A stretch of 62,748 nucleotides of DNA, counting the filler, from Klebsormidium nitens (Eukaryota; Plantae; Klebsormidiophyceae): NCBI GenBank assembly GCA_000708835.1. It is 9 parts of 9 records of this genome, joined end to end, with 100 filler letters (N's around TTAATTAATTAA, not from the genome) between each part and the next. Parts side by side here need not be neighbours in the genome. Positions count along the whole stretch, not along the records: positions 54,076 to 60,377 come from DF238365.1; 8 more parts are not named here. One strand, written 5' to 3'. A program made the position numbers and the translations under genes. The stretch's first letter is position 1, and the number at the start of each line of letters is the position of its first letter. Shown here piece after piece: positions 15,586 to 62,748 of this stretch. The notes beneath the pieces are model-generated. The model ran no database searches, was not told the DNA's origin, and saw nothing but the letters and a program-made list of their open reading frames with translations.

Positions 15586-16014
15586 AAATTGCGGACACAG
15601 TAAAAGCGAGTAAGACTCTTCGTTTTTGGTCGTCATCACGACGATCGGTCCGAAAGTAGTTAAAACTATCACACCCTCTTCAGTGTCGTCGGGATGGTTG
15701 TATAACATGAGTGAAACCTGGTATAGATATGTTTGTAAAAACGACTGTGAAAGAAATTAGTGTACAGCATCACCAATGGATGAAACTTATAATAAGTAAT
15801 CCTACTCAATTTCTGTGTACCGTGCTATCTCTTTCCTCTAGCCTAGTACCGAGTCCCTCATACTTCTTGGACTAGGAGCCATCTCTCCGACCCTCTTTTG
15901 TTCACCAATGGCAGTTCCAGCACGTCCACCTGTGCCAATCAATTCTAACATGTGCGAGTGAGACCTGACATTGCCGCGTTTCTGACTTGACTCATTTCAT
16001 TGTCTTTATACAAC

Positions 16015-17873: not shown

Positions 17874-19769
17874 CTATGCTTGCGACAACTTTGATATTTC
17901 CGACTCCCTGTTGGTATGTCGATAAATAGTTGCAAGAAGTCGATTCTTATCACGAGTTGCAAATGAGTCTACCAACTTCCCACCTTTGTAGAAGTGGAAT
18001 AAGGGCACCACCTGGAGATCAGCACCCAAAGAGGAAGATTTGATCACATCAATTCAAGGGCAACAATATACTTATTGCCATAACCAACGTTCTCGGGGTG
18101 CAACATTCATCGCAAATCATGTCATTCAAACCCTCGAATGACCAGATGAACCGTGGTGAAGTTGAACCGGCAGTTGTTGCTCGAAAGTTTGAAAAGTCTG
18201 GCAACTATGCATGTAAATCTTGGACAGCTCACCTTTATTCGAAGGTCTTCGGCAATGTCACTCTGTTCATCATATTCGTTCATGACCTGCATAAAGATGC
18301 TTGGAATCGAAACTCAAACTGTGCAAGGCAAAAGGAGTGCCTGCAATAGTAGACTGGAAGCAAACAGGGAATACCAGATCTTTGGACCCACAAGCCAGAT
18401 AACTTGCCCTGTACTCTGGAGCCATGAACTTTTCAGCTGTTTGATTCAAAACATGAACCTCTGGGACAAGGAAGCTACTCAGCCAACCACAAACAATAGT
18501 CTACAATCATCTGAACGGATGTACCCAAATAGCAAAAAACCAGAACGATAACAGACGAATCAGGAAAAGAAGCTAAGGCACGTACGTTATGTTTGAGAAA
18601 GACGACATGGTGCTGGCCCCCCTCCTCTTCATCTTTGCTTTCTCCTTTGCACAGCTTCATGAAGCCTTTCTCAATATATTTGCAACTGCCACATGCCGTG
18701 CGGAAGAAGTCGACCACCACGAGCGAATTTGGACCAGCCTCGTCCAGGTGATGTTGAAGCTCGTCCTGGCTGTAGATCTCTTTGACCTGTAATACATCGA
18801 GGCTTGACTTCCAGAACCCAGAAGGCTTGATTTATCGCAGAACAATCATTCTATCTCCCTTGTTGGTGCATCTGGTGGAAAGAAAGACATACAAGGTTAA
18901 CCTGGTGAACGAAATCCGCTGCTAATGTAATCCTTGAGCATCATACTCAATGCAAAACATAAAATGGAAACAAAGATCTCAGAAGACTATGATTCCAATG
19001 CTGAAGTATCAATACCACACAAAAAGCTCAGAAGACTATGGTTCCAATGCTGAAGTATCAGTACCACACAAAAACCAAGCAAGATACTCACGCACTCCAG
19101 TGGACAGACTTCGTCATCGTCATTACCCCTTTCCAACTCGTTCGGCTCGAGGGTACTCGATCGATTGATTTTAAGAGCTTGCGCCACAAGTATGTGCCTC
19201 CTTTGATGTGAGGTCCGCCTAGATGCAACCTGGCAATCAAGTACAACACTAGTGAGTTAAAGAGCAGATTGACAAGCTGCACCACTGCACCACTGCTCAC
19301 ACCTTGGGGCAACCGACATACAAGCTCCAGTTTGCTTGGCATGTTGCCCTGTCTCAACCTCAGCTTACAGATCCCAGCTGCTTGCAATCACAAGTGCCCG
19401 GTTTGCTCCCCCCAACCATCTGACTCCCTGTAAGCTTAGTGCTGCAATTGCAAACCTGTGAATCACGGAGCAAGCTAGATGCCCCCAGAGGTCTAAGTTG
19501 AAGCAGCCCTTCTTAGGAATAAAACTTACACTTGGTAATCCCTCCCTCCAACCAGAAGCTCTCTGTGCAGATAGATTGATTGCATGCACAGATCCTCTGC
19601 AACTCCAATATCTGCTCGGACTGTGCTGGGAGAGGGTGCAAGACGTTTTGGAGAAGCAGGGAACACCAGCGTCACTGCAGATATTGCGAAACTGGTCTTG
19701 GCCAATCGTTGACGGAGTTGTCCAAGGGGCACCACATCTAGACTTGCTCACTGAATCCATGAGCTCCAT
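17874..19769 (-). CDS. Thioredoxin-like 4, chloroplastic (atypical CGSC active site)
   Basis: Exons 19229-19092 (...DDDEVCPLEC), 18786-18586 (VKEIYSQDEL...VVVDFFRTACGSCKYIEKGFMKLCK...VFLKHN), 18286-18233 (VMNEYDEQSDIAEDLRIK) and 18011-17874 (VVPLFHFYKGG...FATRDK...stop), all GT-AG and phase 0. Matches the Arabidopsis At1g07700-type protein. The 5' transit-peptide exon (ATG 19769) is tentative. Confidence 0.9.
18978..19075. repeat. Intronic tandem duplication, 49-bp unit x2
   Basis: ctcagaagactatg(a/g)ttccaatgctgaagtatca(a/g)taccacacaaaaa at 18978 and 19027. Confidence 0.85.
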
Positions 19770-21450: not shown

Positions 21451-24400
21451 GTGGTGACGAGAAGGAGGAAGAGGCACCTGGCGTGGAGGCTGCCGGCGTG
21501 GCTGCGGGGGCGCCTGGCAGTGGGGCCATGGCCAGCCTGAGCGGCAAGGGGGAGGCGGGGGTGGCGGCCACGCGCGCCGCCCGGTGGCAGTGGGCCGTCC
21601 TCGCGGCGGTGGCGCTCCTCATGCTCAAGGTGGGGGGCGCAGCCGGACAGTCTCGAGGATGAGGCACCCAGCATCTGAGCATGCAAAGAAGGGCACAGAG
21701 GAGTCTGTCCTCTCAAGTTGCGTCTTGTGATGGCCTGCTCCTCCTGGCTGGCTCTTGCAGACTATCCATGACTCCACTGCCCTTCTGGAGCCAGCCACGC
21801 GCAACACCTTCCTCTTTGAGGTCTTCCTCTACTACAACCCGCTCGTCACCGTCGTAAGTCACCTGCGTCCTGTCGGCGCCGCTGCCTGAGGCCTCACAGG
21901 GCCAGCATCCGCGGGGACTCGGTGTGAGGATCAGCCGCGCCGTGTGGGTGCCCCTTTTCTGCTCCCCTGCCTTTTTTGCCCCTCCGTGAATGTTGCGCTG
22001 CTTGCGGTGATGGTGGGAGCAGTGCGATGGTGTGCAGTGCGATGGTTGTTGTGCAGGCGTACATGGTGGCACTGTGGGGGGTCAACTTGTGGGCGTTTGC
22101 GCACTCGCGCGTCAGCTACCCCAAAGTCTTCAACATCGATCCCGCCAGCCACCTCACACAGCATGATCTGTGGAAGGTCCGCCCAGCAACCCCACTATCT
22201 GCAAGTGCGCCTAGCAAATCACTGCCTCCACCTGCCATCAGGATCTGGCCGGTTTTGTGACCGGGTCCACTCGATATCCAATGTTGATACTGCTGCACAC
22301 ACCGTCTCCCGTTGAGTAGGCTTGCCACGCAAGCCAGCATGTCATGGCCGCTGGCCCGCCTGCTCCCCCGGCTCTCGTGAGGAGCGCCCATCCTTCGCTC
22401 CCCTCACATCACTGCGCATCGTGCCCCAGATTGCGGCCTGGCTGGGCGTGGCGGTGCTGTCCAGCGCCGCTGCCTTTTTGTACTGCTTCACGCACGGCGC
22501 CCCGCGTGCGGCTGCGGCCCAGCCCATGCTGCTGTATGCGGCGCTGCCGCTGGTCCTGGCGCTGCCGTTCGACGTGCTGTACGCGCCGTCGCGCTTCTTC
22601 TTCCTCACCACGCTCGGCCGCATGCTGCTGCCGCTGCAGCCCATCAGCTTCCCCGACTTCTTTGTGGCCGACGTCCTCACGTCCATGTCCAAGGTCCTCT
22701 CCGACCTCGAGCGCGCCACCTGCCGCATGCTCAACGGCCAGGTCAGGGCCGCACCGGCAGGCATGAACAGCACCCCGCAGATTGTCGGTTGTTAATGCAC
22801 TCTTAATCGGGCCTTCTCGGGGGAATCAAGCTGCACGGGATGGGAGCCTCATATTCTGGACGCTGCTGTATTTCATTCTGCTGTCTTTGCAGTGGCTTTG
22901 GCGCTCAGAGCAAGCCAAGAGAAGGTCACCTACTTCTCACACGCTCATTTTCGATCACGTGCATGGGTTCCGGTGAAAGTGGCACAGTAGTGTCATTTCT
23001 GACGCACACCGCCTCGCTTTGATCTGCAATGGAGAGTGTTCATCACTGTTCCCGTGGCAGGCCCAACGAGCCCGTTGCGAACATCTGACGTGGCTCTTGC
23101 CTGCCCAGGTGGCGAGCCTGCTGTGGCTGGGCCCAGACGACGTGTGCGGGGGCCACGCAATGGCCATCCCCTGCGTGCTCGCGCTGCCTTACGCCTGCCG
23201 CTTCTTCCAATGCTGCCGCCAGTACAGCGACACCAGGGAGAAGAATTGCCTCTTGAACGGTGGGCTCTCCGCCACCATCCTTTTTACACGGCGTTGTCAA
23301 CAGGGATGCGGAGGTGCTGGCTGGCTGGTCCGACATGCTGAGGACTGAACCAGGGGCGTCTTCATGCATCACACATCTCATCGAGCAAAGAAGCTCAGAT
23401 GCTCGAAGTGTTTCCACAAAAAGCCGTCTTCTCGATTTGCGAGGAGTAGACTGGCTGGGCTTTTTTGTTGGCAGGAGGGCATGAAGGGAATGAGGACATT
23501 TCAGAAGAAGATAGAAATGTTGGTAGTTGGACGGCTCTCGATGCAGAAGGGGTTCTCGTGTCACTCGGGGAGGCAGTTTCAGTCCAGCATTCATTGGATT
23601 TGAGTACGTGGCAGTACGGTGCTCGCCGAGCGCATGAAGCTCGTTGCGGTCTCTAGCAGGCGTCCTCTGCAGGGGGCAAGGTGGTGCCAGTACACACTGA
23701 AGACAGCACGGTGGCTAGGTCCGCGTTGTGAAGAGTACACGAGGACTCGGGCTGAGGGCCATGTTTGCATCCGAACAATTGTCTTGCGGGCGCCCAGCCT
23801 CTCCGAGCCAGGCGTTCAGCTGGCGGCCCGCATCCTGACGTTATCAAGAGGGCCGTTAGGGCTCTGGGCTTTTGACCCCTTCCCAGGGCATGGCGTCAGC
23901 CTCTTGCTTTGGCACTTGCCGCCGTGTCTGACGGCCTGCTCTTTTCGCAGCGCTCAAGTACGCGACGGCGTTCCCGGTGATCCTGTTCTCGGGCATCAAG
24001 TACCGCGTGCCGCTGGAGGAGTGGCGCGGCTTCTGGAAGCCGCTGTGGATTGTGGCGGCCGTGGTCAACAGCAGCTACAGCTTCTACTGGGACATCGCGC
24101 GCGACTGGGACCTCACCGCCTTTTCGCCCGCCGCCTGCCACGGCCGCCACCCGCTGCTGCGGGCCAACCTGTACTACCCGCATAAATGGGTCAGCCCACA
24201 CTGCAGTTCTGTATTTCAAGCTGTGGTGTGCGCCTTTCACCGGAAGTCCCGAACAGTTGCTTGCAGTTCTGAAAATGGTTATCTTTGCTTTCCCTGCTGA
24301 GATGGTCAAAGTGTCGTCCCGGTTGTGTGCTCTCGTTTGGCTTCTTGGGCGTTCTCCAGCATCTTCGCGTTCGTTGTTGACGTGGCAGTGGCGGCGTGCA

Positions 24401-43019: not shown

Positions 43020-43580
43020 GATCACTTGCGCAACCTTGGTACCGTAAACTTTTAAGAGACCACTCGCCCGGGCCTCGCCTTCGCAGCTTTCTCCTTCAGG
43101 CCGAGCGGCCCCCCCAATGGCCATGATGGTGGCCATGGGATTAGTCCCCGGGGAGTGGCGGAAGACCGACGCGTTCATTACGCCAGTCCGCCGACGCCTT
43201 TCACCCGGTGCTCTTTTTCCACGACCTCCCCCACCCGGCACGTGCCGTGCATGTGCCAGCTTGTGCACAAGTTTTCCTCCAGCCACGTGGCAGCCGCCGA
43301 CTCGTTGTCGAGGTCGGGATTCAGCGGCAGGGCGCGCGGGTACGCCCCGGGGGGAAAGTTCGCCAGGCCGGGGACCAGCCGGAGCATCGTCCCGGGCACT
43401 TTTTCGCACTTCAGGGGGTTCAGGGCGCGGGAGTCGCGGACGGCTTCGAGGATGCGGACGCCTTCCATGCCGTCAGAAACGTCGTCGGATGGGCGAAGTA
43501 CGCGAAGTCGACTGTCGGCTGGGCGGCCGGGTCGGTGGATGTGACGGTCACCGCCCCCAGGGACTTGACCCGGTACAGCT
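43020..43580 (-). pseudogene. GMC oxidoreductase C-terminal exon (HOTHEAD/mandelonitrile lyase-like), frameshifted
   Basis: LYRVKSLGAVTVTSTDPAAQPTVDFAYFAHP / DVSDGMEGVRILEAV...TSWHMHGTCRVGEVV..HRVKGVGGL / VMNASVFRHSPGTNPMATIMAIG. At least two 1-nt deletions (~43485, ~43180). WH..G.C and PGTNP.AT are GMC C-terminal signatures. Confidence 0.82.
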
Positions 43581-45251
43581 GCGGGTCAGAATAAGATGGA
43601 GAATTAACTAGTCCAGAATCAGGTTGCCAAGTGTTTCTGTGTTAGGATTACAAGCCTGGTATCGCTGTTCAGAAGCACTCCCTACAAAAGGGGTCTTGCT
43701 TTGGGCCCAATTACGAGACCCCCAACGGGGCTGGATCCATAAGGAAACTCGACAAATACGCGTCTTGGAACGGATCGAGAAACTCAGCGTGTCGGATACC
43801 CGTCGGACAGGGCCAGACTGCAGTCGCGCCGCTTGAAGAGCAATATATTTTGTATGCTTCGAAGTTCGGGAAGGTGAAGCCTATTAGGGACTGGTGTCAT
43901 CGGAGTTATCTGACGGCCCGGGGGAAGCCTCCGGAATAATATCCACCGTCCGATGGACCCCCCCGCCAGAATAAAATTCGACTCGGAACACACTCGCGAA
44001 CCGAATTCCGGACCAGGTTAAACCTCGGTTAAATCAAAACCCGCTACGAATTCACTCGCGCCGCAAACGGCGGAACCTCGAACCCGACTCGACCCGCCGG
44101 GCATTGTNNNNNNNNNNNNNNNNNNNNNNNNNNNNNNNNNNNNNNNNNNNNTTAATTAATTAANNNNNNNNNNNNNNNNNNNNNNNNNNNNNNNNNNNNN
44201 NNNNNNNGGCTTTGGCGAAAATTCGGGGGGTCGGGCCGGCCATCGCCGGAGGCGATAAGGGGTCGGGCCCGCAGGGCCCGACCCCTTCCAGTTCCTCAAA
44301 CGTAGTAGGGTGCGGCGCAGCCGCGACTGGGGCAATTTAAATCTCTGACAGTACTTGTTCCGAAGAGGAGCTGTTCAGGAGTTTGTCCACTTTCGATACC
44401 ATGTCCGGGCAATTTTAGCAGCGGTTCGGGCTGCGATTTATCGTTATCGAAAATGGATCTTAGAGCCTCTTAGTACGTCGCCGCTTTTCCCGGATTCCGG
44501 GTGAAAACGGCTACGTGTCCACAATTGGCTTGCGGCAGCATCCCGAGCCCGCTCATTAGTGGATCAGTCACTGCTCACTCAGTGCTAGTACCGTTAGTAC
44601 TGGTACGAGAACCAGGCTCATATGTTTATCCATGAAAATATCTTAAACTGCATCCATATGCGTAGGCTGTAGCTTAGGCATGTGATACCGAAAGAAAGGC
44701 CATACCGATATTGCACATGTGCGCTTATTCTCAAGATCAGCAGCATGATTCTCAAGGTCAGCAACTCGTGCACATACTGTGCTTAGTGAAAATACAGTGG
44801 ATTATGCAGATTATGCAGCATGCTGCACATTTAGTAGGCCCATTGATGCACTGATGTTCCGTGGTTTATGCAAGATACCAAAAAAACAAAAGCCTGCGCG
44901 GACGTCAGTAAAAATCCATCGGTCCGAACGTTTTGAGTAGGTGCGGAACTCGTACTTTCATTGATATCCGTTAGAGTCGTAGATCGGCAACGTGCAAGAT
45001 CATCGGCATGCAGGTACGAATAGCCCTAGACGCAATTCAACAGAATGCACTCACATGGTTTGAAGTGAAACAACACTCGAATATCGCTATGAATGTGTTA
45101 GGGCCTAGCCGCTGTAAAAAGGTTCACATCAACGATGAAAGATTCATAGATTGGCATGTATCACAAAAACATACCTTATATACTTGTACACAAGTACTAC
45201 AACTTTCAATGGCTGGTTGTAGCAATCTAATAAATAAGCAAATGTGTCTCC

Positions 45252-48200: not shown

Positions 48201-50903
48201 GAAGTGAGCGGGTTGACCTTGGACGACGCCTCGTCGCCAACTGCCTGTCAAGATTGAAAACTAAGTCAACGATCAGAAAGTCTGTGACCGAGGGCAAATG
48301 CCGTACATAGGGTGAACCCGTGCTTCTCACTAGTGAGCTTGTCACTGTGCCAGATGACGGGACACTTACAAAATCAACAGCTTTGCGAGCCGGCTTATTG
48401 AAGCATCTCTCGAACCCACTCGGTTAAATTTGAAAACCAGCTGAGCATGCATTGACCTCCTAGGCTGACCAGTACGTCCGGCCAACCTCTCTTGAACCCT
48501 GTCGAGCTAACCCCCATCTGTAAGCCATCTTATGCCAGAGAGCTACAGTGATAAGCAACCCAAGAATTGCCTCCACAGGAGATTTCGAGTGCGGCGCACA
48601 ACCAAACATAAAGAAATGGAAACAAAGGCTTCTCACCTCAAGCCGCGCAAGCAAGACCTCCGGGGGTGGTACTGCTTTGCGGCATCTCCTCAGTGCATTC
48701 TTCCCAGATTTGTCCGAAAGTGTTTTCCCCTTCTGATCAAGCTCCTTCATAATTCCCACCATGTCCGCTTGGTTTTTGAGGAAGATGGCGTCGCTCAGCT
48801 TCCCTTGCAACCAACCTGCTCAAAAAGTCGAAGGGGTAATAAGCAACTCCATCAGAGGACCCTCTTGAATTGCAATTGCTCTCACAGCTTCCAACAAGCA
48901 TAATACTCGCATTCGGTCTTGTGATGAGGTAAAGTGAAGCAGTAAACATGTGCTGAACAGTTTCTCATTAAACAGGCGCGCTGCGGTCAAGGAGGATCAA
49001 ATCAACACTTTGCAAAGGTTTGATAATCGAGCTCGCTTTATAAAAGAAGAGCTCTTGTAATATAGAGCAGCTTGAAGAGCACACTGCATGGGCTAACATG
49101 CTTGCAACCCAGCTTGAACAATTACCTCTGAAAGGATGATCTTCAGGGATGCGCTTGGTCACACGCATGATAGCGTGCAAAATGTCCATGAGGTACGCCT
49201 CCAGCCCGGGCCAGATGCCCATGAAAAAGGGGCCCATCACCTCGGGCCAGTCACAGAATAACACCCGGGGCTGCAAGCAAGCAACATGCGCACTTGCAGT
49301 GAGGTGCACCTGTCTTTTAACATCAGGCGCTGATCTAGAAAAGATCTCTTGATCCGCAAAGTGCTGCAACCATGTAAGAGACCAGAGCAATGAACTGCTG
49401 AGCAAGAGTGAATGAGCTGGTGCACTATATGCTGGTGCAAGACGGCAAAGCGGAGCTTTCGAAGGGAGATAAAAGCGATTGTGGAAGCTCACTGCGCGGC
49501 CTGCTGCTGCCATCCGCTCGTAGACTTGACGGAGATTGTCTTTGACAACCTCAAGGGACGTACTGTGCGTCCAAAGGCTGGTTGCAACTTCTCCCGTCTC
49601 CGTCATCATGGTGAGGGTGGCCTCCAAAACACGCTGCCCCTCCACGCCTCTGAAAGAATGATGAGCACTGGATTTCGAACCTCTGCTGCATGGTTTAAGG
49701 TGCAGGCTGCAAATAGTTGCATCCACAGAACCTTCCTCTGTATTTTATGATATACAGAAAACAAGAAGAGCACGGTCTCACAGAATCAGAAGACTTGCAA
49801 GTGGCAGCTTGCTCATGCAATCAGACATCCAGAAGCAAAGAACCGATGTGCTGTCCACACTGGTCGCCCTTAAAAGCTGGTTTAACATACCTGATCCTCC
49901 GCATCAGTTTGTGGCAGTGGTCGACCCCAACGCACTCGCCTTTCACAAGCGCCATCTGCTTGTTGTATGTGGGTATATTCCCAGCAGCCTGCTGCAAGAA
50001 GACTGCTGACAGGAGCGCTGGACCAGCAATCCAGTCCGGAACTCGCTTCCCCATGGCCCAGCTTTGAACCAGCTGCTCAATGCCTGCCCCCCCACCAACA
50101 GTGCCACCGAAAAACCTGCCTATACCATTCTGGCGCTTCGCTTCCGCCTCAGCCCGCTTTGCCTTCAACTCGCACTGGTACTCATAGTAGACAAGCTCTC
50201 GTCGTTTTTCGGCCAACACATGCATCTCCTTCACCAGGCGTGCGATGCGAGGGAAACCGATTGCTTCCGGAGCGAGAAAGTGGATCAAATCCTGCAGCGA
50301 TCGCTCCACAGGCACGCCAGTCTCAGTGAAGTCAATGGGCAGCTGGTCCTTGACGAAGGGGCGCAACTGATTGAGGATATCTAGACTGTGAGCTAGATAC
50401 AACGTGCTGCCGTAGCCCCCCTTGCCATCGGGCTTCGCATGGCAGTCCTTGCAGCGGTAATCCTGAGAGAGAAGAAAGAGGGGTCGATGGAGCCCCAAAG
50501 CCCTGACTAGCTTAGAGTACCAGCCATTGCGTACCACAGTGGCCTTGCCACAGCCGCGGACACAGATAAACTTCTCAGGCACGAAACCCTTGAAGAAATT
50601 TTGCCAGGAAAGGACAATGACTGTGCAGCCCCAAGCTTTGAAGGGCTCTACCCGAGGTGCACCAAATGGGTTTCCAGACGAAGGCCCTGGCTTTTCAGTC
50701 TTTGCAGAGATTGTTGGATTGGGTGCCTCAAAGATGTAGCTCTCACAAGTCTCTTTGCCTCCAACCTTCAGCTTAACAAACTGTATGAAGGGCTCCAAAG
50801 GAGTTCCATTGTATGCAATCTCAGCAACTTCAGGAGCTGCATGTCCTGCTCCGTCCTCCATTCTTTCTGCAGGCAAGATTGCATAGGAGAATCTAGGAAG
50901 CAC
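45252..50903 (-). mobile_element. Multi-exon Mutator-like (DDE, DxxH-type) transposase gene
   Basis: Cys-rich N-domain (CVRGC...DYRCKDC); candidate catalytic triad GVDHCHK, VLFCDW, SRLEGFH; MDILHAIMR (DxxH) insertion motif; W-N-x-R motif; C-terminal PITTASEHNLFLEL and CRKC..HNCPY. GT-AG introns join most pieces in frame; one frameshift in the repeat region. Confidence 0.75.
46085..46660 (-). repeat. Coding minisatellite (~51 bp, about 11 copies) encoding 'GGVRSQPAFAPHPAVP'-like units
   Basis: ggctggctcc...caggaacagcgg recurs about every 50 bp; in the minus-strand frame it reads as repeated SQP units. Confidence 0.85.
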
Positions 50904-53900
50904 CTCTGAGCTTCATTCAGTCAGGGCGGCTGCATTCCTGTGACAGCAGAAGCCTTGGCGCCATCGCTTGCGGAAAGTTCAACTTCAGTCTTGAAAGACT
51001 GGTGACTTTGGATGGTCTTTGTGATTCAAAGAAACCCGTCGATGAATTTTTGAAAGTTTTCTGGAACGTCAGATCTGCCACCTTGGCTCTAAGCTGGGCT
51101 AATCTTGAGAAGTTCATGGTCCGTCGGATGATCAGCGGTGTTTACGGGATGATGCCGCCTGAAGTTTTCTTAAAGTTCTTGAAGATCTTTGATCCGTACG
51201 ATGGTCAGTGAAGAAGTTTTTGAAGTTTTGAATGCCGTACGATTGAGCAGAAAAGAAACTTCTGATTGATCCGGCGGGCCCGACGCTGGAAAACTTCCCG
51301 GGCTTTNNNNNNNNNNNNNNNNNNNNNNNNNNNNNNNNNNNNNNNNNNNNTTAATTAATTAANNNNNNNNNNNNNNNNNNNNNNNNNNNNNNNNNNNNNN
51401 NNNNNNCGTGGTCCAGATGTGGAAATTTGATGTGAAGAGCTCCTGTTGGTCTTCAGGATATGGTGAACTCGAGAAAGCGCCTCCTTGCCTACCTATGCCC
51501 CAATTTGAGCCTACAACCATGTCAAAAAGGAAGTTCCTCGCGCAATGAGCCCTGCCATTCTTTCCAGGACATCAAGCTAGACCGCCCTACCTAAGTGGCA
51601 TCTCTGTATCTTTATTTGTAGTGCTGCAGTAGCCATGTTTTGACACCCCCATTTTACAGCCAGAAATGCACAATTTGGGGCAATATTGCCGCGAATCATC
51701 AAAAACTCGGGGGGAATCGGTACCGTGAACTCACGAGTTACATACGAAGTACCAAATTTGACCGGTCAAATCTACATCGAACCGTCGCGATATCCGGCCA
51801 ACTCCGCCGCCGATAAATTCATCTGCGCCCAATTTGCCCCGGCCGCATTTTGCACCGTAGCGGTCCCGTGTGCGGACCGTCGCTTGATACCACTTTAAGA
51901 GGCGTCCGAAAGGTTTCTCGGACAGTCCGCTGTCCCGGAATTGGAAATTTTGGAAAATGCAGGATCACACCCGTGACCCCGGCCACTTCAGTTCGGCTGG
52001 GAGTTCGCGGCGACCACGGCAGGTTTTGAATTTCCAAATGAGTCGAAATGACCAATAATCGAAGGTGGCAGGGGGTTCAATTGAGCCGACATTGTCAAAA
52101 GCTGGCGACCGGATCTTGCCCCCTGCTGATTTCAAATTCGTCACCGTCATCCCTGTACCTATACATGCACCGGCCGTCTGGCGACGGCGGGGGCTTGCCT
52201 CTTCCGACTGGAAATCAGCACACAGAGACGACCGGGGCCCTGCATGCTCTAGCGCGCCGGACGGCCAAGTCATGCTCATTTCGGGGGGCAAGTACACACG
52301 TCTCCTCCCGAGCCTCGAGGTTTCGACGTCGGTACCCTTCCATGCACGAACTTCGACGGCGAAGCTGTCGAAGCACCCTTGCTTATCAGCGGCGACCAAA
52401 TTCGTCGCATAAACAAACGGAACCGCACGATAAATCATCGACGGACGACCCCAAACGCCCAGCTAGGGCTCTAGCGCAGGTAGCACCGTCCCGGCCAACC
52501 CAATAATTGCCAATCGCATTTAAAAACCAACAAATGCTGGTCGCCCAACACAACTGTACGTCGACATAAATTTGGCGACCGCCAACCACAACGCCCAACA
52601 AAGCTTGTCGCCAGAATAACACGCACGTCTCGACGCAAAGTCGAGCATCTACGCCGCTCCGCGCGCCAGTCTGCCATAAGTCTGACACGTTATATGGGAG
52701 GTATTCTCCTTTTGGCATGCCATTTTCTTGCTGTTCTGTGTGCGCCCCAAATGCGCGCGAGCGTACGCGTTATTGAAAAAGGCGAAGCCATCGTATTGGT
52801 GTCGTGCAAGTTCGCAGTATGACGTCTGAAAGTACCAGGCGACCACGGCTGTTGTATGTTGCATGTTATGTTCGCTCTTTTACCATTATAAATCCGGCGA
52901 ATCTGTGCGCGAGGGGATTTCGGTGACCACGCAATTCCCGGGTGTGCACCTAGGGCATTCAAAAGCAGGTGTACGACGTGTGCGACATGAACCGTGTGAT
53001 GAGAGGCCTGATAAATCGGCATCCAACACTGGCACCAGAAATCAATACAGCAGTTTTCCGACCGTCTTGTCGTATTGAGCGCTCAAAGCAGGTCGGCCGC
53101 CGGTCGCAGGTCGTGCGATTGGGATTTGCACGTGTGGTGAAAGGTCGCAGGCCGTCGCCGTGGACTGATTAAAAAATTCAAGGGGATGGCAGTCCCCTAA
53201 GAAAGACTTTGGTCGATCCCGTGTCAAGAAACGCGGCTGACGGTCTGTCCCACGTGGCTACGAGCGCGGTATTACATTGCTTACCCGTATATATTACAAG
53301 CTCTCAACGCGAAGCCAGGTGGCCGTCAATTTGGTATATCTAACGGCTGAGATCAATGACTGGCACGCCAAGTGCAGCACATGGCGTGCTGCCAATCTGG
53401 TTATGGATTGGGGGGGCTGCGGCCCCCCCAAGCCCCCACACCCCCCCGCTTCAGTGAGTAGTATATAACCCCTTTAATTATCAATAGCGCTCAGATCGTC
53501 CACATCGGACCAACATTCGTTTATCGGGGGGGCTGCCGCCTCCCCAAACCCCCCCGCTGCTTCTTTGAACCAAGTACGTTCAGCCTGTTCGTATTGGCAG
53601 CTCAAATGGCATGCCGGGTGCAGCATATCGTGCTACCAATCTACATGGGACCGCAGCGAAGGTAAACTTTGCGCAATTAGACCCTATATTTGAAAATTTT
53701 ATCCTGGCGCAAGCCAGAATTTTCCCGGTAAATCCTGGCTGGTTTTGGAATTTTTCCGGTGAAAACGTCAAATCCTGGCGGGCTGCTTGCCCGCTTACGG
53801 ACCTCCCTGGCTGGCCGCCAGGATTTTCCGATGATTTTTTCCTTGGCTGGCGCCAGAGTCGAAACCTTTCTTGCGCAGAGTTGCTGGCTCAGCCGTTCGG

Positions 53901-54075: not shown

Positions 54076-54955
54076 TCTTTGTCTGCAAAAGCGGTGTGTG
54101 GAAACGACTCGTCCTGCTCATTGAGCTCTAAACAACGCACTATTCGGGATTCGTCATGTATGTCTATTTGTCCGTTACGACCAACTCGTCTAGCAGAAGT
54201 ATTTATGAGTTCAATCACCCATGCTGGAGCGGTTGCAATATCAGTGGTCCTCTTCGGTGTGACATTCCATTTGTATTCTTTTCCATCGCCAAGCGAGCTC
54301 GGTGGAGCAAACGCAATTCCCCCTTCACCACGACCATCAATTCCATAGACTTGACCATTCACATCTACACCCACAAAGTTCTTACCGGACTTGAGACCAT
54401 CTTTGAGGATGCTCGAAAACGAGAAGTAGTAATGAAATCCGCCACTAGGAGTAGTTGCTTTTAACGTGTTTGGCTCTCCATGTTTGTCAATCAAGCTCTT
54501 CAAAACGGCATTCCAGCCGATACGTCTTCGTCCTCTTTGTCCTTGACATCAATATCCAGAACATATACATCCGATATACAGCCAGTCTTGATTGCGATAA
54601 AATTGAACTGTTTTTCGTGTACGTATTCCTTTATTCTCTCTTTCGAAGCATTCCAATCGGAAGCTGACCGTATAGCTGTGCCCCCGTTCGCATGTGGCAT
54701 AGTTCCGAGTACCCTCTTACCAGACCCATCTTGCCCTAGTAAAGCCTTTGCCGGTATAGCATACAGGCCTTCGTTAGCGTACTCCTTGAATATTTTCAAC
54801 AGTTCCATCTCCGGCCACTGTGCAATATTTTCTATTCTAGAAAATTTTCTTGGTATTGAAACGCGCCCTAAGCCATCCGAAGTCCACGGCGCGCCTATGA
54901 ACGCCAACCCTCTCAAGATTTCCAAATGGTTTTCATTGTATGCATGAAGCATCAT
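54076..54955 (-). pseudogene. Bifunctional primase-polymerase (Prim-Pol) domain protein, frameshifted and truncated at gap
   Basis: FIAIKTGCISDVYVLDIDVK, then (after a 1-nt deletion at ~54501, MPF[W]KSLID) TLKATTPSGGFHYYF...IDGRGEGGIAFAPPS...YKW...APAWVIELI: the DxD, TxSGGxHxYF and DxRG.GG...PPS motifs. Confidence 0.85.
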
Positions 54956-55112
54956 AACACTTCAACACGACACTCAATCGACAGGTCCACAATCCACAAG
55001 CTGCTGGCATCTCAGAGGGAGAGTGGCACAACATGGTTCATTCTCCATATGAGTGCTGGAATGATATGTTGAGATGTTTGTTACACAATCTAAATAGGGT
55101 GACTTACGATGC

Positions 55113-55346
55113 TTAGACAGCAATGTAGATCTTTGCCTCGTGTAAACGTTCCATAGTACGTCTGTTGACTCGAACACCCTTCTCCATTCGTTCAAGAGCT
55201 TTCTTGAGCGGTATTCGATCTTTGTTAGAATCATAGTACGCGTGTGCATAGCTCCTGCTTTTGGCTTGTTGTTCCTCCTTATAGTTTGCAGATTCCAAGC
55301 ATGCTGCACACAAAGTGGAGCCTGAGTGGTCGTGATTGTCGGTCAT
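55113..55346 (-). CDS. Small hypothetical viral-type protein
   Basis: CAAC followed by a basic helix KSRSYAHAYYDSNKDRI; co-oriented in the viral-like cluster. Confidence 0.35.
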   Translation of the reverse strand: MTDNHDHSGSTLCAACLESANYKEEQQAKSRSYAHAYYDSNKDRIPLKKALERMEKGVRVNRRTMERLHEAKIYIAV

Positions 55347-55430
55347 GGTGCACGGCAACGACATTACCGTTACTTCCAGAGAAAGAAATTGTTTTTGATG
55401 AAAAACGCGCACCCGGACATCAAGTGCGGA

Positions 55431-56534
55431 TCAACGTGACCACCGCCGCTCGTAATGATTGAGGGCCGTTGAAAGCGAGTGCCCCATCCATTCACACTTT
55501 TTTCGTACCTCCCCTCGGGAACCCAGATCGGGTGTGAGCTCTGTATGCGAAATATGACGGAGCAACGTGCACGATAGATTCTTATCAAAGTGACGTTGAC
55601 CCAAATCGTTCAGTACAATGGTAAAATTATTGATTGGTTCATCTTTAAAGCCAAGATAGTAATGTTTCATGACCAAGTAGTATCTTGGAAAGAGATTAAA
55701 GCTTCGAAGAATGACATTGACTAGATTTTCAGGAATGTGCAATCTCCGTATGCCCACCTTGTTGAGTGTCTTGTGGCTGCTGATAACAAATTGGCAATGC
55801 TCAAGATCCTTTGTTAGGATACATGTATTGATGTCACCAGGTTTTGCTTTAAATTCTTCCGTTTCCTCCTTCATGAGGATTCGACAACTCCCAAACTCGT
55901 TTCGTAGGGGCCCGAGAGGCATTGTGTACAAGCTTAGGATCAAATGGTCGTTAACGAGTTCTTTATCGCTACGCGTCAATGCACGACCATTTCTAAATTT
56001 TTCAACGATTGTTCGTGTAATAATCTGATCAAGGTTGTCTCTTACCTTGATCATTTCTTTCCAAGGCACCCACATTTCAAGCTCCTTTGGTGTCTTGTGT
56101 TGCATTGTTTCATCCAGCTCGACCTCGGTAGGCTTTTTTGCTTCAATGAAATCACCGTACGCTCGTTGTGCGTCCTCGAAGCCCTTCTTCTGAGCAAGGA
56201 TTGAAAATGGTGCCGCATAAGAACTTTTTGTAAGCGATTTGATGGGTTTTCCTTTTCTGTCTAACAAACTTTCGATCGCATTTATCACGGTTCCATAATC
56301 TTTTATCCAATCTATAGACACATCGTCATCTAGTTGCTGGTTTGGGTTAAGAATTGTGTATATGTTTAGGATCTGGCGGAGGTATACATTCACGGTAGAG
56401 TCGGCCCGTAAAGTTGCCTCTGAACCATCACGACCATCTTTAACCTTGAGGATGCTCCTTAGTTTTGGTAACTGCGATGGCGATGCCTTCCTCTGATTGT
56501 GTGGCCCCTCGATGTGAACTACCCGTGTGGCCAT
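55431..56534 (-). CDS. Tyrosine recombinase/integrase, intact ORF (367 aa)
   Basis: Catalytic signature in correct order: R (GPLRNEF), K (SHKT), xxxR (TLLRH), H (MGHS), Y (LNHY). N-terminal core-binding region STVNVYLRQI. Style resembles recombinases of PLVs and NCLDVs. Confidence 0.85.
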   Translation of the reverse strand: MATRVVHIEGPHNQRKASPSQLPKLRSILKVKDGRDGSEATLRADSTVNVYLRQILNIYTILNPNQQLDDDVSIDWIKDYGTVINAIESLLDRKGKPIKSLTKSSYAAPFSILAQKKGFEDAQRAYGDFIEAKKPTEVELDETMQHKTPKELEMWVPWKEMIKVRDNLDQIITRTIVEKFRNGRALTRSDKELVNDHLILSLYTMPLGPLRNEFGSCRILMKEETEEFKAKPGDINTCILTKDLEHCQFVISSHKTLNKVGIRRLHIPENLVNVILRSFNLFPRYYLVMKHYYLGFKDEPINNFTIVLNDLGQRHFDKNLSCTLLRHISHTELTPDLGSRGEVRKKCEWMGHSLSTALNHYERRWSR

Positions 56535-56614
56535 CTTTCTTGTAGCTTCGCAGCCGGAGTCCTTCAGCTAAACTTATCGTTAGATTTATTTTTCGGCTAG
56601 AAAAGCAAGTCTAG

Positions 56615-57445
56615 TTAGATGCGTTCAAGATTGAGTGACTTTCCGTTGAAAAGAAGCTTACCGCAGAAATTGCTGTAATTGCTCCCTGACATTGGTGTTA
56701 GCGGATCAGACACTGAGGTTATAAAAAAGTCTCGAGGGATGAGCTCTAACGTTCTAGCAAGGTACTTACAAAACATTGTTGGAAGCTCGTACAACTCTTG
56801 TTGTTTCAGTAAACAAATCGTGTTATTTGACCGACTTGTCTGGATCAGTGCATCTTCGGTGTCATCGTGCTGGCCTCCACTCCTCTTGAGAATGATAGGT
56901 AAATGATAGATCTTCACACCTCGTCTGACGTGCTTTTTTATCAGAAGATGCCATTCAACGAGCAAATGTATCATTATGGTTTTCACATCCTTTCTGTCGA
57001 GGTCGTCTGCAACAACGTGTGACAAAGATCGGACCTTTCGAGCAAGCTTGCTACCCAAAAGATCAATGTCTTCACGTGACATCTCGAGTTGTTTCATAGG
57101 GTCATGCCCCGATTCAGCGGCTTGTTTCTCACGAAGTTCTTTCAACGGCTGATTATCCTTCTGAAAGGGCTGAAAATAAATCTGATAAGCTTCTGAGTTT
57201 CCGAGCTTTTTACAAGCGGCAAGAATAGGGGCCAATCGGGTCCTTCTCGATCCAGGATTTGCATATCGATCATGCACGAGCTGAGTGAAGACGTGTGCGT
57301 CTGTTTTCAAAAAGCTTAGATCATCTGTATTGGATAGTTGTCGATCATGGCACAATTGATAGATAAGGGCAATGCCCCTTACGTATTGATCAACGGATGC
57401 CTGAGTTCGAATGTTGTCGGTGAACAGCTGACGCAAGGCATCCAT
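56615..57445 (-). CDS. Degenerate paralog of the adjacent tyrosine recombinase, lacking the catalytic C-terminus
   Basis: Collinear similarity by eye: SVDQYVRGIALIY vs TVNVYLRQILNIY; DDLSFLKT vs DVSIDWIKD; IMIHLL vs VNDHLIL; LARTLELIPRDF vs ILRSFNLFPRYY; GKSLNLERI* vs DKNLSCTLLRHI. It stops before the H and Y residues. Confidence 0.6.
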   Translation of the reverse strand: MDALRQLFTDNIRTQASVDQYVRGIALIYQLCHDRQLSNTDDLSFLKTDAHVFTQLVHDRYANPGSRRTRLAPILAACKKLGNSEAYQIYFQPFQKDNQPLKELREKQAAESGHDPMKQLEMSREDIDLLGSKLARKVRSLSHVVADDLDRKDVKTIMIHLLVEWHLLIKKHVRRGVKIYHLPIILKRSGGQHDDTEDALIQTSRSNNTICLLKQQELYELPTMFCKYLARTLELIPRDFFITSVSDPLTPMSGSNYSNFCGKLLFNGKSLNLERI

Positions 57446-57597
57446 ACTTATTGATCATATAGTAGAGCTTCGACAATAATTTTCACATGACCAGACGTGC
57501 AGACCTATTTATATCAACCGTTGATGTCAAAAAATAATGACAAGGAAAAGTCGCACAACATTTATATCTTGAAAAATGCTATCGGCAGCGGCATTTG

Positions 57598-57638
57598 TTA
57601 GAGAAAAGTGCACTTTTCTCTAATCGATAACTAGTTAT
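57598..57638. promoter_or_regulatory. Perfect 26-bp palindrome plus adjacent 12-bp palindrome in a divergent intergenic region
   Basis: TTAGAGAAAAGTGCACTTTTCTCTAA (57598-57623) and ATAACTAGTTAT (57627-57638). Function unknown. Confidence 0.5.
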
Positions 57639-57835
57639 TCAAAAGTGCGTTACCACAATCTCATAGCTGCAGCATGTAGCAAAAATCGAGATTTGGTGCG
57701 TCAACGAAAGATGACCGTCAAGTATGTTCTATGATTGATCAAGCTCATTGTAAAGGAACAAAAGTGACTGAGGTGAGTGACGAGACAGATAGCAATTTTT
57801 TCCTCTTTGCAAGATTGAAAGGCACCTTGTACATT

Positions 57836-58330
57836 ATGGCTTCAGGTATCCGTTCATTCAGAGTCGAATCGGCTTTCTTGGGCACTTGCAAGTCGAATGT
57901 CACTGACAAAGTAAGAGATGCTCGATTAGAGATTAATCGTGAAAGCGGTCGTTCGCTTCAAGCAGGGGCAAGAGTGGGATCAATGTTGTATCGAAGCTTG
58001 AAGTCAACAGCAACTAGCACGTGCAGCCGAGCACCTCTAGTCTACTACGTCTTGCTTGTTGAGACAACACGCAATTCTGCTGGTAGAATGTTTGCATACC
58101 AAATAGATATCAAACTTCTGAAGAAGTCAGAGCAACCAATTGGTCTTGCTTTTACTGGAACATATCGCACATCCACAAGAAAGTTTTCGGTGGATACAAT
58201 GTTGAATTGGAATTCTAGTGGTGCAACAAAATCAAAACCTTCGTTGAAGACGACTAAGATTGCTCCTCGAAAGCTCGAATGGAAAAAGCGTAAAAACCAC
58301 GACGATTGCCCAAAAAGATCCGTTGTCTAA
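57836..58330 (+). CDS. MC1-like (non-histone chromosomal protein) viral DNA-binding protein
   Basis: GIRSFRV...LQAGARVGSMLYRSL...VLLVETTRNSAGRMFAYQI..KLL..P matches the RSF..AA.K..ETTRGS..F.Y pattern of MC1-like NCLDV proteins (PBCV-1 A437L type); Lys-rich tail. Confidence 0.6.
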   Translation: MASGIRSFRVESAFLGTCKSNVTDKVRDARLEINRESGRSLQAGARVGSMLYRSLKSTATSTCSRAPLVYYVLLVETTRNSAGRMFAYQIDIKLLKKSEQPIGLAFTGTYRTSTRKFSVDTMLNWNSSGATKSKPSLKTTKIAPRKLEWKKRKNHDDCPKRSVV

Positions 58331-58427
58331 ACCGAAAAAAGCTTCGTCGACGAAGATTACGCGATAAATATACACCGTCTGATTCAAATAGTACACAAAC
58401 AACATCCCACAGGATATTCAAAACCGT

Positions 58428-59129
58428 TTGATTTCGTTGATTCACGCCACCAAACCGCATCTACAATCATCTCTTCTTCTGAAGAGTCGATTTCAGTGTG
58501 TTATATTGCTTATGCACACTTTCTGTCGGCGTCACCCCAAGAAGACTACTCTAGGACTGTTGAGCAATACTCCGAATGCAGAAACGGAATGTGATTCTTT
58601 TCGAACATTCCTCCATCGTAAATTCCATTCAATAGGGTATACGCATTTCGACGGTCCAATGTCGCAGCTTACCATAGAGCCGCGCTGTTTGAAACCTCAG
58701 AAAGAAAGGCACAGTGGTGGTGAGGATTTATTGGGTAAAGCAATCAATCTAGATCGATGCAAAATCTTGTCAGATGGTACATCGGTAGATTGCTACAAGC
58801 AGGTTCTACGATTCGGACTCGAAGTGAAGAGTGCAGATATCATTAGTATTGGCTTAGCGCTTCTAGTGCGTCAAACGATGGATCTACAGACAAATGGAAC
58901 ACCTAATACATTCACAGTTAACGATCTTAAGGAACGGCTTACACAGCTGACACTTCCAAACGAACAATATCAAAGGTACACCATCATCATCAAAGATGCA
59001 GTGGTTTATGATCACGAGATTGAAGTGCTGCTAAGGCATGCAATGAGACATCTACTCCTCGAACCGGATGGTTCCATTGACAGTCATTCCGCAAGCCTAC
59101 CAAAGGCAAATCTTGAAGTACAGCAGTAG
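58428..59129 (+). CDS. Hypothetical protein
   Basis: 233-aa intronless ORF within the viral-like cluster; no motif recognised. Confidence 0.45.
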   Translation: MISLIHATKPHLQSSLLLKSRFQCVILLMHTFCRRHPKKTTLGLLSNTPNAETECDSFRTFLHRKFHSIGYTHFDGPMSQLTIEPRCLKPQKERHSGGEDLLGKAINLDRCKILSDGTSVDCYKQVLRFGLEVKSADIISIGLALLVRQTMDLQTNGTPNTFTVNDLKERLTQLTLPNEQYQRYTIIIKDAVVYDHEIEVLLRHAMRHLLLEPDGSIDSHSASLPKANLEVQQ

Positions 59130-59185
59130 TTCGTACAATCTTGAGTGTACATTTGCGGTGCAATAGCATTGTTAAGATCAATCGT

Positions 59186-60377
59186 CTATGCCGTGACGAG
59201 TTCCCCAAACTTCAATGGGACCCTCTCTACAAAATCTCTCATCTTGGTGTCTATTCTAGTTGCTAACCCTGGAGCTGCCATCACCTGCAGCTTTAGCAAC
59301 TGAGCCATGTGCTTGACTCCGAGCGTGCCCCGCGGATCGTACTCTACTTGCCACCCCCCGTAAATGCGCGCCCGCTTCTTGGTAACCGGATCCACCAACG
59401 TTTCCCGGCCTGCCTGAGAGAGCGAGATTCGAAGCCCTATCTTTTTGAAGATGTGGTTCAAAGCGTGCGTTACCCCTTTCCGGTCCCTGAGGTCGACCAC
59501 TGCGCGCTTAGCTCGGGTATTGAACAGACGTACACAGCTGTCGTACTCTTTGAAATACTTCGTAACCAAGAGCTTCGGTGCCAATGTCTCGAGAGGCTCT
59601 GAGATGTGCTCATGGTCGAGCGGATGCGCCAGACCTAGCGTGGAGAGAATCTCTCTCGTGATCTGGACCTCGACTGGTCGATAGCTAGCCCTTCCTATCT
59701 CCGTGATGTCCCACTGATGGAAAGGATCGATCACTTGCAGCAGAAACGTGAGAGACTCTAAGGGCTTTGCACCATACACGTCGAGGAACTCCTCGTTAAG
59801 GCGACGGATCTTGTAGAAGCGGATAAGTTTGAACCTGTCCATCTTTGCAACATCACCGTCCTGATGCGCCCGCTTCTGAACCAACCGCTCAATCCGTTGA
59901 AATTCTTGGCTCGAGATGTCGGTTGCTTCGAGCAACCGTTGCTTCAGAAAGCCCGTCGGACGCGTCTCCTCCTGCGTGCCATCGCCAACCTTCTCGGTCT
60001 CGTCGAACCGCAGCTGTAACAATCCTCTCACGATATGACCCTCACTCTTGAGCAGCTCTGTGAACGCTTCATAGAAGTGTGTTTGACCGTTGGTGGTTTC
60101 AGCGTCATTGTGTGCGAGCAACTTTGCAATTGGATCTTCAGGTGGGACGTACTCGAGCAGACCCCCCTCCCCCCTCCGCATGACTCGGGGAAAACAACGC
60201 CTTGCCTCGTCGCTGGCCCAACGATTAAACTGGTAGACCTCCTCTACGCTCTCCCGTCGAGTGCTGGTTATCCGCTTGTGCCCCATATGAGTCAGAAAGG
60301 AAGGGGGCTTAGGAGTCTCTGTAGAGAACGTATGATCAAGGTCATGGCTCGATTGAAGCACTATGAGGACGCAGCTC
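59186..60377 (-). CDS. Probable C-terminal half of a viral replication origin-binding protein (UL9/OBP-like helicase family); 5' part lost in gap
   Basis: Frame open to the contig end. DPIAKLLAHNDAE..N..THFYEAFTELLKSEGH and EATDISSQEFQRI resemble the post-helicase region of NCLDV OBP-like proteins. Helicase motifs are not visible. Confidence 0.45.
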
Positions 60378-60477: not shown

Positions 60478-60904
60478 TCGTGACAAGCTCGTGCACCCTG
60501 TCCGCATCTTCCGCCCGCACATCCTTCAGACAAGCTTCTTTGGGCATGGACACATCTTGCGGCGGCATCCTGCTCGCTGGAGCGGAAACCTCTGCTCGAG
60601 GATCGATAATAGGGAACAGGATGCGCTCTCGCCGGCAGAACGGATCGAACCGTCTCTTTGAGTACGCCCTCAGTTGCAGGCGGTAATTTGTGGATATAGA
60701 CATCTGCCTGCGGTTGCCCTTGGCATCAGTCGCCGAATGGAATACCATCTTCGTCCTGCTGAAGTTCGTTATGAGCCAATCGAGGATCCGAAGGGACGGC
60801 AAACCCTTCTTCTGCTGTAAAATGTTGAGCAGAATGGCCGCGTTGTTCGGGACATCATAGAAGCTCCTCAACGACACGAGCAGTAGGTCCTCTCTCCCCT
60901 GCAT
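60478..60904 (-). CDS. Conserved NCLDV protein of unknown function (SLRxxDWxxTN...FDPFCRR family), truncated at gap
   Basis: MQGREDLLLVSLRSFY...PSLRILDWLITNFSR...YRLQLRAYSKRRFDPFCRRERI...ELVT; a motif set widely conserved in phycodna- and mimivirus-like genomes. Confidence 0.8.
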
Positions 60905-60991
60905 GTTGCTACTGGCCTTTCTCAACATTTGCAAACTCCTAAGTACGCAGGAGGCAAGCGCACCGCCCTTGGCTCCTTGACCCACGGAAGG

Positions 60992-62411
60992 CTAGTATAT
61001 TGCCTCTACACAGCAGTCACTGATGGTGAATGCTGGATCCTGCATGATTGCAGGCTTGCCGGAGACCACGTCATAGTACATATAGCGCACTTGCATGCCG
61101 TCCCCGTCCGCTTCTGATGCCTCTCGAATGGCTTCGAGAAGGCGTTCCTCCCGGGCGGCCCTCTTGACTTTCTGCTTCTTGCCATCCACGTGGTACGCGT
61201 TTGGGTTGTAGCGAAGGAATCGCACCGGCAGACCATTCCCTTCGAGCAGCCAGGCCTCATAGATCTTGGCCATCCGAGCAACGTCGCATGCCACCCCATA
61301 GGATTCGTGCTGGTACTCGTCGACCTCCAGCACGACAACCTTGCCATTCTGGATGATGACAAAGTCCGCGCGAGCGAACGTGCCTTGCAGACAGCCAAAG
61401 TTGACATAATGCTCCCGCTTGAAGTCGATGCTGGACCCCTCGAGGAGCTTCGCGATCCGTACCTCCTCGCGCTTGCGCTTCTGCTTGCCCTCGGTGGTGT
61501 GATAGTAATATGTATGTGTACGTAGGTGGGTGCTCTGTGCAAAATCGTCCTTGCACTCGGTGCAGGCATACGGGCGCTCGCCTGTGTGTGTCCGCTGATG
61601 CACCTGCAAGTGTTGTGCCTGGGAGAAAGTTGCATCGCACACGGTGCAGGCGTACGGGTGTGCGTCCGCTGGTGAGATTGCAAAGTGCCGGCTACAGCAA
61701 AGGTGGCATCGCACTCAGTGCAGGCGTACGGGCGCTCGCCACTGTGCGTCCGCTGGTGTCTCTGCAGATCGCCCGCCTGGGTGAATTTTGCATCACAGTC
61801 GAAGCAGGCATACGGGCGCTCGCCTGTGTGCGTCCGCTGATGCCTGTGCAGAGTGCCTGCCTCAGCGAATTTTGCATCACAGTCGGTGCAGGCGTGCGGG
61901 CGCTCGCCAGTGTGCATCCGCTGGTGGATTTGCAAGTTGCCTATTTGAGCGAAAGTGGCGTCGCAGTTGGTACAAGCATACGGGCGCTCGCCACTGTGCG
62001 TCCGCTGGTGGATCCGCAGATGAGCTGACTGATTGAATGTTGCGTCGCACTCTGTGCATGCATATGGCCGTTCGCCAGTGTGCCTCCTCTGATGGGTTCG
62101 CAAGTGGTCTGCCCGAGAAAAACCGCACTGCACTCTGTGCATACATGCGATTTCACCTTCTGAAGGTGCTCAACATTCACACATGATTTCTTGCCACAAC
62201 TGCGCCGACAATGATGCATAGTATCGAGCACATTGTCAGGATGCTCCAGATCCCAAAGAAAGCGATGCACGTTGAAGCTTCGGCTCTCTTGGTCGATTGT
62301 GACTTCCACTCTGCCCGACCCATCTCCTCTCCACAGGCAACAGCCATTTGCATCAGCAGGGGAGGTCTTTGTCTTGATTGCGAGCAGCACAGCAGCGTTC
62401 CAGTTGGCCAT
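60992..62411 (-). pseudogene. HNH-like domain + 8 C2H2 zinc fingers + PD-(D/E)xK-like endonuclease, two frameshifts
   Basis: N-terminal [29 protein letters not shown]; eight CxxC-x12-HxxxH(-like) fingers with TGERPY linkers; C-terminal [36 protein letters not shown]. Frameshifts at ~62120 (1 nt in a T-run) and ~61658 (~10-nt deletion in a linker). Confidence 0.85.
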
Positions 62412-62748
62412 TGATACTATTGACGTTCTAAGCACAAAGCTTGTCCCTAAGTGTTGACGCACCCTTAGCACCCTGAGCGCATTCTGGCCCTGCTCTTCCA
62501 CAATCTACGGTGCACTTGGGAAGCACCTCGCATACTCCTGTGCAACTACCTCGTACAACTCTGGTGGCAGGCCTTCTTGAGGTGCCTCTTGCCCCTCATC
62601 ATCACCAAGCGTATCAATACCAAAAACCCAACAGCGCTTTTTGAGCCGAAGACTCGAGTCCCTAGGATAAGGGGGGTCTATAGCCTCTCTGCCTGCTCTG
62701 AAGAATAGGAGGAGCCCCATCTCTGCCCAAATACCGTTCTGGGCCAAC

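Follow-up and report, generated by a model that had tools for sequence, protein, structure and literature searches.

Proteins that have the fold of tyrosine recombinases and lack the catalytic residues, and that are encoded beside recombinases that are still active, are already known in bacteria. Tfp and GinC have been described as such proteins, in operons with active recombinases (PMC10214605, partial text), and all of the gin genes are given as essential in an excerpt of PMC5385486. The locus that we describe here, in DNA of the alga Klebsormidium nitens, resembles these systems in outline: a protein that appears to be a dead recombinase (ORF A) is encoded beside a predicted active tyrosine recombinase (ORF B) and a small downstream gene (ORF C). 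It differs in that SE and GInt, the settings of Tfp and GinC, are bacterial four-gene operons that combine two active recombinases with Tfp or GinC and with Srap or GinD, whereas the A-B locus has one recombinase that is predicted to be active and lies in virus-like algal DNA. We found a single complete recombinase-like ORF in the window, by which we mean the whole stretch of 62,748 nucleotides that was analysed. Nor does the host appear to be bacterial, as none of the 159 pattern matches for A relatives in genome_contigs was confirmed, and the only A homologue with a species name belongs to Klebsormidium nitens, which makes a streptophyte alga the likely host lineage. That A descends from a lineage of viral recombinases suggests an origin independent of Tfp and GinC.

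Several other described systems share a part of this arrangement. MrpR (YopR) of the Bacillus phage SPbeta is likewise a protein with a recombinase fold and without recombinase activity in an integrating virus; however, it is full length and keeps Lys and Tyr in the absence of Arg and His, which is the opposite of the pattern in A, and SPbeta integrates by a serine recombinase (PMC10516654, partial text). In Tn554 (TnpA, TnpB and TnpC) and in the RIT trios several tyrosine recombinases occur together, and the available portion of PMC3414803 gives a possible catalytic motif in all of them, whereas A is without one. Domesticated Crypton recombinases (DUF3504, Cbf2/Ndc10 and Gcr1) lost Tyr and Arg-II and were kept, with a proposed role in the binding of DNA or proteins. 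These are host genes with extra domains that are detached from their elements (both statements from an excerpt of PMC3212892), whereas A is intronless and is linked to B in virus-like DNA.

Among the viruses, OLV11-like tyrosine recombinases are found in Polinton-like viruses, virophages and Aureococcus anophagefferens virus, and the excerpted text of PMC4642659 describes them as single genes and mentions no dead partner. The phaeovirus integrase is a tyrosine recombinase for which a role in the insertion of giant viruses into the chromosomes of algae has been proposed; it has approximately 800 aa, and its single gene lies close to the end of the element, the CC junctions of which are defined (PMC13236599, partial text), whereas neither element ends nor att sites were found at the A-B locus. 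According to the same excerpt, phaeoviruses are the worked case in a field in which the entry and exit of giant-virus-like DNA in algal genomes are mostly open questions, and Klebsormidium is among the genomes in which giant-virus endogenization is recorded (PMC11244446, partial text). Our search of the literature, mainly open papers without their supplements, found no report of such a pair in eukaryotic viruses or in Klebsormidium. The A-B pair is a real and conserved variant that is apparently undescribed.

Layout and setting of the A-B locus

ORFs A and B lie on the same (minus) strand with a spacer of 80 bp between them, and both are open throughout (Table 1), just as the first-pass annotation of this DNA had described them. 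That annotation had also called the neighbouring genes frameshifted. This is true of the Prim-Pol gene and of the zinc-finger/nuclease gene, each of which is read in two frames, but not of ORF C, which is intact.

Table 1. Coordinates of features at and around the A-B locus, in positions of the window.
Feature	Position	Strand	Description
ORF A	56615..57445	-	276 aa; derived from a tyrosine recombinase; has a core-binding-like domain and part of a catalytic-like one; Arg-I (R174) kept; without Lys hairpin, His-II and Tyr; stop conserved
ORF B	55431..56534	-	367 aa; predicted complete tyrosine recombinase of Polinton-like/giant-virus type; R211, K255, R326, H352, Y361; Thr at His-I position
ORF C	55113..55346	-	77 aa, intact; His/CxxC motif, basic tail; 84 bp 3' of B
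Perfect palindrome, 26 bp	57598..57623	.	about 150 bp upstream of A
Prim-Pol primase gene	54076..54955	-	PF09250, E 1.6e-12; two frames, break near 54500; enters scaffold gap
DUF7197 gene	60479..60991	-	giant-virus relatives; of 394 pattern matches in viral contigs 384 confirmed, many of them GVMAG
C2H2 zinc-finger array, nuclease-like tail (two frames) and HNH-like endonuclease	60995..62504	-	upstream of A

The viral-type genes present in the window are Prim-Pol and DUF7197, the second of which we take to be VLTF2-like, and on the left side the locus runs into a scaffold gap. No Pfam match to capsid, packaging ATPase or polymerase B was found among the 125 of 146 long frames that were scanned, and the repeats listed (25 of 46 inverted pairs, all gap filler) include no long terminal repeats flanking the A-B block. 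A step in the summed depth of run X6 near 57.7 kb, which does not reflect copy number, was not taken for an element end; run X9 continues across it. A 396-aa frame at 59189-60376 (minus strand) has no Pfam match, and a run X9 contig spans it at about 89% identity; presumably it resembles the C-terminal region of an origin-binding protein or a helicase of viruses.

The 26-bp palindrome may be an operator, a core site or the hairpin of a terminator. Searched with up to 3 mismatches, it has one match in the window and none in 100 shuffles, a count to be read knowing that the pattern was chosen from the same sequence. ORF C has homologues of 80 aa, and their longest-contig values coincide with those of A and B homologues. 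We use this 'longest contig' value, recorded for each protein, as a proxy for a shared contig; it shows neither adjacency nor independence, the latter because a single organism may be the source of many of the records, as copies. B and C are adjacent in P0071 and P0056, where the reading of a frameshifted B continues into ORF C.

Relationships and catalytic residues of A and B

B carries R211, K255, R326-H327, H352 and Y361, in agreement with the R-K-R-H-Y reported for the downstream gene. R211, K255, R326, H352 and Y361 are conserved among B homologues, which form 17 clusters at 47-78% identity among 2061 candidates. GenBank phages gave no match to B; sequence searches of the PDB returned no useful match. 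The clusters nearest to B in the Atlas are mostly Preplasmiviricota, and PF00589 is found in 16% of the members of one neighbouring cluster. The structural model of B (pLDDT 71) has 12 matches at E<=0.001 among the predicted viral structures of BFVD (best 2.7e-7). Most of these are from giant viruses, and two carry the names integrase or Tyr recombinase; virophage proteins and one protein from Aureococcus anophagefferens virus are also matched. Foldseek comparison with the PDB gave weak matches (best E 0.039), led by Cre, Tre, XerH and XerA, and VIA aligned 218 residues of the model with an archaeal Xer (Z 8.5, rmsd 8.5) and returned an integron integrase at Z 8.1. From its residues and its model we predict that B is an active tyrosine recombinase like those of Polinton-like and giant viruses, and that it likely belongs to the OLV11-like family, to which the links are indirect.

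Tyrosine recombinases of viruses can also have tasks other than integration, for which VLF-1 of nudiviruses and baculoviruses and the protelomerases are the models. The A-B pair might then act in the processing of the viral genome (resolution of concatemers or hairpin ends, or packaging) and not in integration into the host. VLF-1 (E 1.5e-3) and TelA (E 0.35) are indeed found among the weaker structural matches of B, a ResT/TelK cluster stands among the Atlas rows for A (score 0.93, 127 of 256 features shared, to be taken as a lead only), and a perfect palindrome and a primase gene are nearby. Nevertheless, the best matches of B are the giant-virus proteins, including the two named ones, and Xer, integron integrase and Cre, and the element is integrated in many related copies; we regard a role in genome processing as improbable.

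In the C-terminal 40 residues, the B homologues P0013-P0086, which are otherwise similar, differ by two or three alternative tails around His-II and Tyr. The combinations of these are mixed, and this suggests that copies have recombined with one another.

The first-pass annotation had proposed that A and B align along their length. Compared directly, the two are only faintly similar (BLASTP 25 bits, E 1e-3, 164 aa; hhalign probability 58%, E 1e-4, 219 collinear columns). Their homology is nevertheless secure, because an HMM built solely from A-clade sequences matches B at E 2e-4 (7806 frames, 87 sources) and because a third lineage, a full-length set that we call 'Y', is matched by both (hhalign probability 99.6% over 267 columns with A, and 99.9% with B). 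Comparison with phage-integrase profiles, which had been suggested as a check, was less informative: no integrase profile in Pfam or PHROGs matches A or B. When the A profile was compared with 1.84 billion representatives, the 13 matches at E<=0.001 were A relatives and members of the full-length lineage such as P0098 (E 1.5e-15), with no B protein among them. The model of A is poor (pLDDT 48, with residues 111-276 below 50), and with it no BFVD match was obtained at E<=0.001. The Atlas clusters nearest to A consist of hypothetical proteins of viruses, 268-273 aa long (score 0.96, with 144-154 of 256 features in common). As a lead only, this hints that viruses may have short proteins of recombinase type more widely.

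Alignment shows that A is missing the Lys hairpin with its FKT, the acidic residue that comes after Arg-I, and all that follows from about Arg-II on; its end (LNLERI*) falls at about the Arg-II/RH position, where it had been placed before. His-II and Tyr are gone with this tail, and His-II/Trp, Tyr and the catalytic Lys are absent in both of the A clades that we distinguish. The earlier statement that A has no clear first Arg has to be corrected, as R174 aligns with R211 of B; all 21 of the close homologues that are near full length have it, and so do 20 of the 21 rows that cover this column in an alignment of both clades (A8). A further Arg, R275, is found in 19 of the 20 rows that extend to the end, and in an ungapped alignment it lies 2-3 positions short of Arg-II. 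One homologue, P0094, is without both Arg residues. On the evidence of its sequence, A is a non-catalytic derivative of tyrosine recombinases. It is in this respect unlike XerC and XerD, two tyrosine recombinases that act together and that each have a possible catalytic motif.

The two conserved Arg residues raise the question of a composite active site, in which A would give Arg in cis and B would give the His-II/Tyr tail in trans, as an extreme form of Flp-type trans cleavage. Such a site would account for the retention of R174 and of the near-terminal R275, but it would have to be built without the Lys hairpin and without the acidic residue after Arg-I, with R275 out of register with Arg-II, and in P0094 with neither Arg. 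We see in it an outside chance.

The tandem paralogy of A and B that was first proposed holds as deep homology only. A tree of 19 rows recovers A as monophyletic (100/100), with the full-length Y lineage as its sister (99/98), and a clade of A and B is rejected (p-AU 0.01); a quick tree of 39 rows agrees. Because A and B are both on long branches, we consider this result good but not final. BLASTP scores of A are 71-86 bits against four Y proteins and 25 bits against B. The origin of A as a tandem duplicate of B is rejected at the p-AU value given above, and A is most likely a second recombinase that was recruited, and not a tandem copy of B. The members of Y (P0098, P0101, P0102, P0109, P0111, P0113-P0115 and P0117-P0125) come from the same kinds of data sets on different contigs, and the 8 members checked are full length with a complete catalytic set.

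The same relationships could point to A as a dominant-negative decoy directed against the Y lineage, which would bind the sites of full-length recombinases or enter their synapses and thereby block rival elements. A is nearer to Y than to B in the tree and by BLASTP, and 0 of the 16 proxy values of Y contigs match any A or B contig, as this reading would have it. Such an absence would, however, equally be seen if Y were merely part of other elements. The branch of A is moreover long (1.33) and its identity to Y proteins is only 23-25%, which makes a shared specificity doubtful, and we think that a decoy has little chance of being the answer.

Conservation of the truncation and of the pairing

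To judge the age of the truncation we surveyed 34 of the 37 cluster members that are close homologues of A. The terminal motif is reached by 23 of them; 22 stop exactly there, and the remaining one runs on for 12 residues that hold no catalytic motifs. The other 11 end early. The distant A clade (38-45% identity where measured) has 7 members that extend this far, and the stop is in the same column in all 7; the deletion of the Lys hairpin is common to the close and distant clades. Homologues in A's own clade are thus always short, where full-length and catalytic homologues would have indicated simple decay. Against the copy in run X9, A has 37 differences, distributed 25/8/4 over third, first and second codon positions (among the 40 of 64 differences that are listed), and dN/dS, which had been suggested as a check, is approximately 0.16 (binomial p 6e-7), a value from one low-depth contig. 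The stop codon of A is changed to another stop in this copy. We conclude from these comparisons that the truncation of A is old and under selection and not a product of decay.

A decaying pseudogene that hitch-hikes with B is accordingly the alternative with the least left to recommend it. It is true that many endogenous copies are broken, and that several B homologues end early as do the 11 close homologues of A, but the same stop and the same internal deletion recur across clades that are 38-45% identical, dN/dS is low, and A has diverged to the same extent as B; the idea is largely refuted. Rescue of the missing tail by a frameshift was rejected as well, since the 80-bp spacer has no frame that bears His and Tyr and the homologues have a common stop.

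The junction between A and B is bridged by contigs of runs X5 and X9 (2 of 4 runs, among the matches listed), which have different organism labels and come from different studies. By the shared-contig proxy, 23 of the 33 values for close A match close B and none match distant B, whereas 6 of the 9 values for distant A match distant B and none match close B. When B contigs of at least 3 kb are considered, 28 of 37 have an A match and 9 do not. We further compared distances in 20 pairs, namely the window pair and 19 of 23 matched pairs (4 were dropped as short fragments), and found equal divergence, with a mean of 0.215 for A and 0.226 for B, and correlated distances (Mantel rho 0.61, p 0.0005). 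These comparisons show co-inheritance of A and B. Co-inheritance would be equally expected for a repressor, or for any gene in a stable viral block.

The first-pass annotation saw in A a non-catalytic partner of B. Such a partner, selected and co-inherited, is therefore supported, as the two proteins are homologous, the clade of A is short throughout, and the pairing is found elsewhere, both in the bridged junctions and in the clade-by-clade matches of the proxy. The missing residues, the conserved stop and the dN/dS value are in line with it.

No second copy of the A-B pair was seen in the 86 loci that were fetched. The fetched loci with more distant B relatives have one recombinase-like ORF each (6 of 6, among them L003, a short contig that is matched only in part). 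A B scan of viral contigs gave two distant loci, a scan with the full-length sister set gave three, and a scan of one metagenome gave one distant locus from 44 matches. Pattern matches for A relatives in viral contigs were confirmed in 0 of 140 and 0 of 44 cases, and the Prim-Pol scan confirmed 0 of 18.

Run X6 has 1551 contigs on 54080-60370, and of 554 places with changes 430 show C>T or G>A, a pattern that is as expected for many methylation-decayed copies; silencing or decay of the endogenous copies appears to be due to the host. In the window's copy, CpG is close to its expected frequency (o/e 0.97-0.99), without depletion.

Possible roles of A, and other features of the window

Adjacency of a repressor and an integrase is common in temperate elements, and A might be a repressor of the MrpR kind, which would bind operators such as the 26-bp palindrome and keep the element latent independently of any contact with B. 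The palindrome is in place upstream of A, and the separate ancestry of A fits an independent job. MrpR itself, an inactive protein of recombinase fold, is the master repressor of SPbeta (PMC10516654, partial text). The likeness is limited, as MrpR is full length with its Tyr whereas A is without the tail, and as MrpR binds a repeated element whereas the palindrome occurs once in the window. The state of the endogenous copies in run X6 further suggests that silencing or decay was brought about by the host instead. We take the repressor as the main rival of an accessory role but consider it unlikely.

The reading that we prefer, at a probability of about 0.45, is that A is a non-catalytic DNA-binding accessory of the predicted recombinase B, and that it is needed by B or controls B in the integration or excision of the viral element. 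The ancestral element that carried B would also have held a second recombinase from the sister lineage, which would then have lost the Lys hairpin and the His-II/Tyr tail and been kept for its DNA clamp. A would bind DNA through the retained helices of the core-binding and catalytic domains, and would occupy sites at or next to the attachment region of the element, where it would shape the synapse while cleavage is carried out by B only. ORF C may take the role of TnpC, GinD and Srap, in an analogy by position only. Several observations temper this reading, among them the 9 larger B contigs that have no A match, the lack of any att site or element end among our results, and the single occurrence of the pair in the fetched loci. 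Because A is sister to a lineage other than that of B, its surfaces and its DNA specificity need not fit B, and the single recombinase at the 6 distant-B loci indicates that the recombinase family of B does not generally need a partner.

A stronger form of the accessory role, which we regard as doubtful, is that a family of DNA viruses of streptophyte algae integrates and excises by an obligate heteromeric recombinase. Dead A, from the other lineage, would give DNA binding and possibly an Arg, B alone would give Tyr, and C would set the direction. If this is true, the A-B pair would be a eukaryotic-virus counterpart of Tfp and GinC with an independent origin, as well as a natural two-part switch for viral latency, and an obligate two-part recombinase would be attractive as a tool for controlled integration. 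The A-B-C module is compact and intact and has many natural variants, and would permit a direct biochemical test of a dead recombinase controlling a live one in a eukaryotic virus. It would also exemplify a mobile element that re-uses a second recombinase lineage as a non-enzyme, with parallels in the bacterial Tfp, GinC and MrpR.

Elsewhere in the window we noted several further features. An EXS-family gene at 21928-24297 (plus strand) is in several pieces and frames, which fits an intron-containing host gene and indicates that the host is a eukaryote, and a fragment of a GMC oxidoreductase lies at 43181-43585 (minus strand). ORFs at 48971-50912 (minus strand) have a weak match to DUF6729 (E 0.017) and are possibly a transposon remnant. 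GC-rich hairpins at 44257-44287 and 53408-53431 (with arms of 14 bp and 10 bp) are beside or near scaffold gaps. Lastly, a histone-fold-like ORF at 15991-16332 (plus strand), with a weak match to CENP-S (E 0.002), and a thioredoxin gene at 18478-18831 (minus strand) share a low-GC block that is possibly a second viral remnant.
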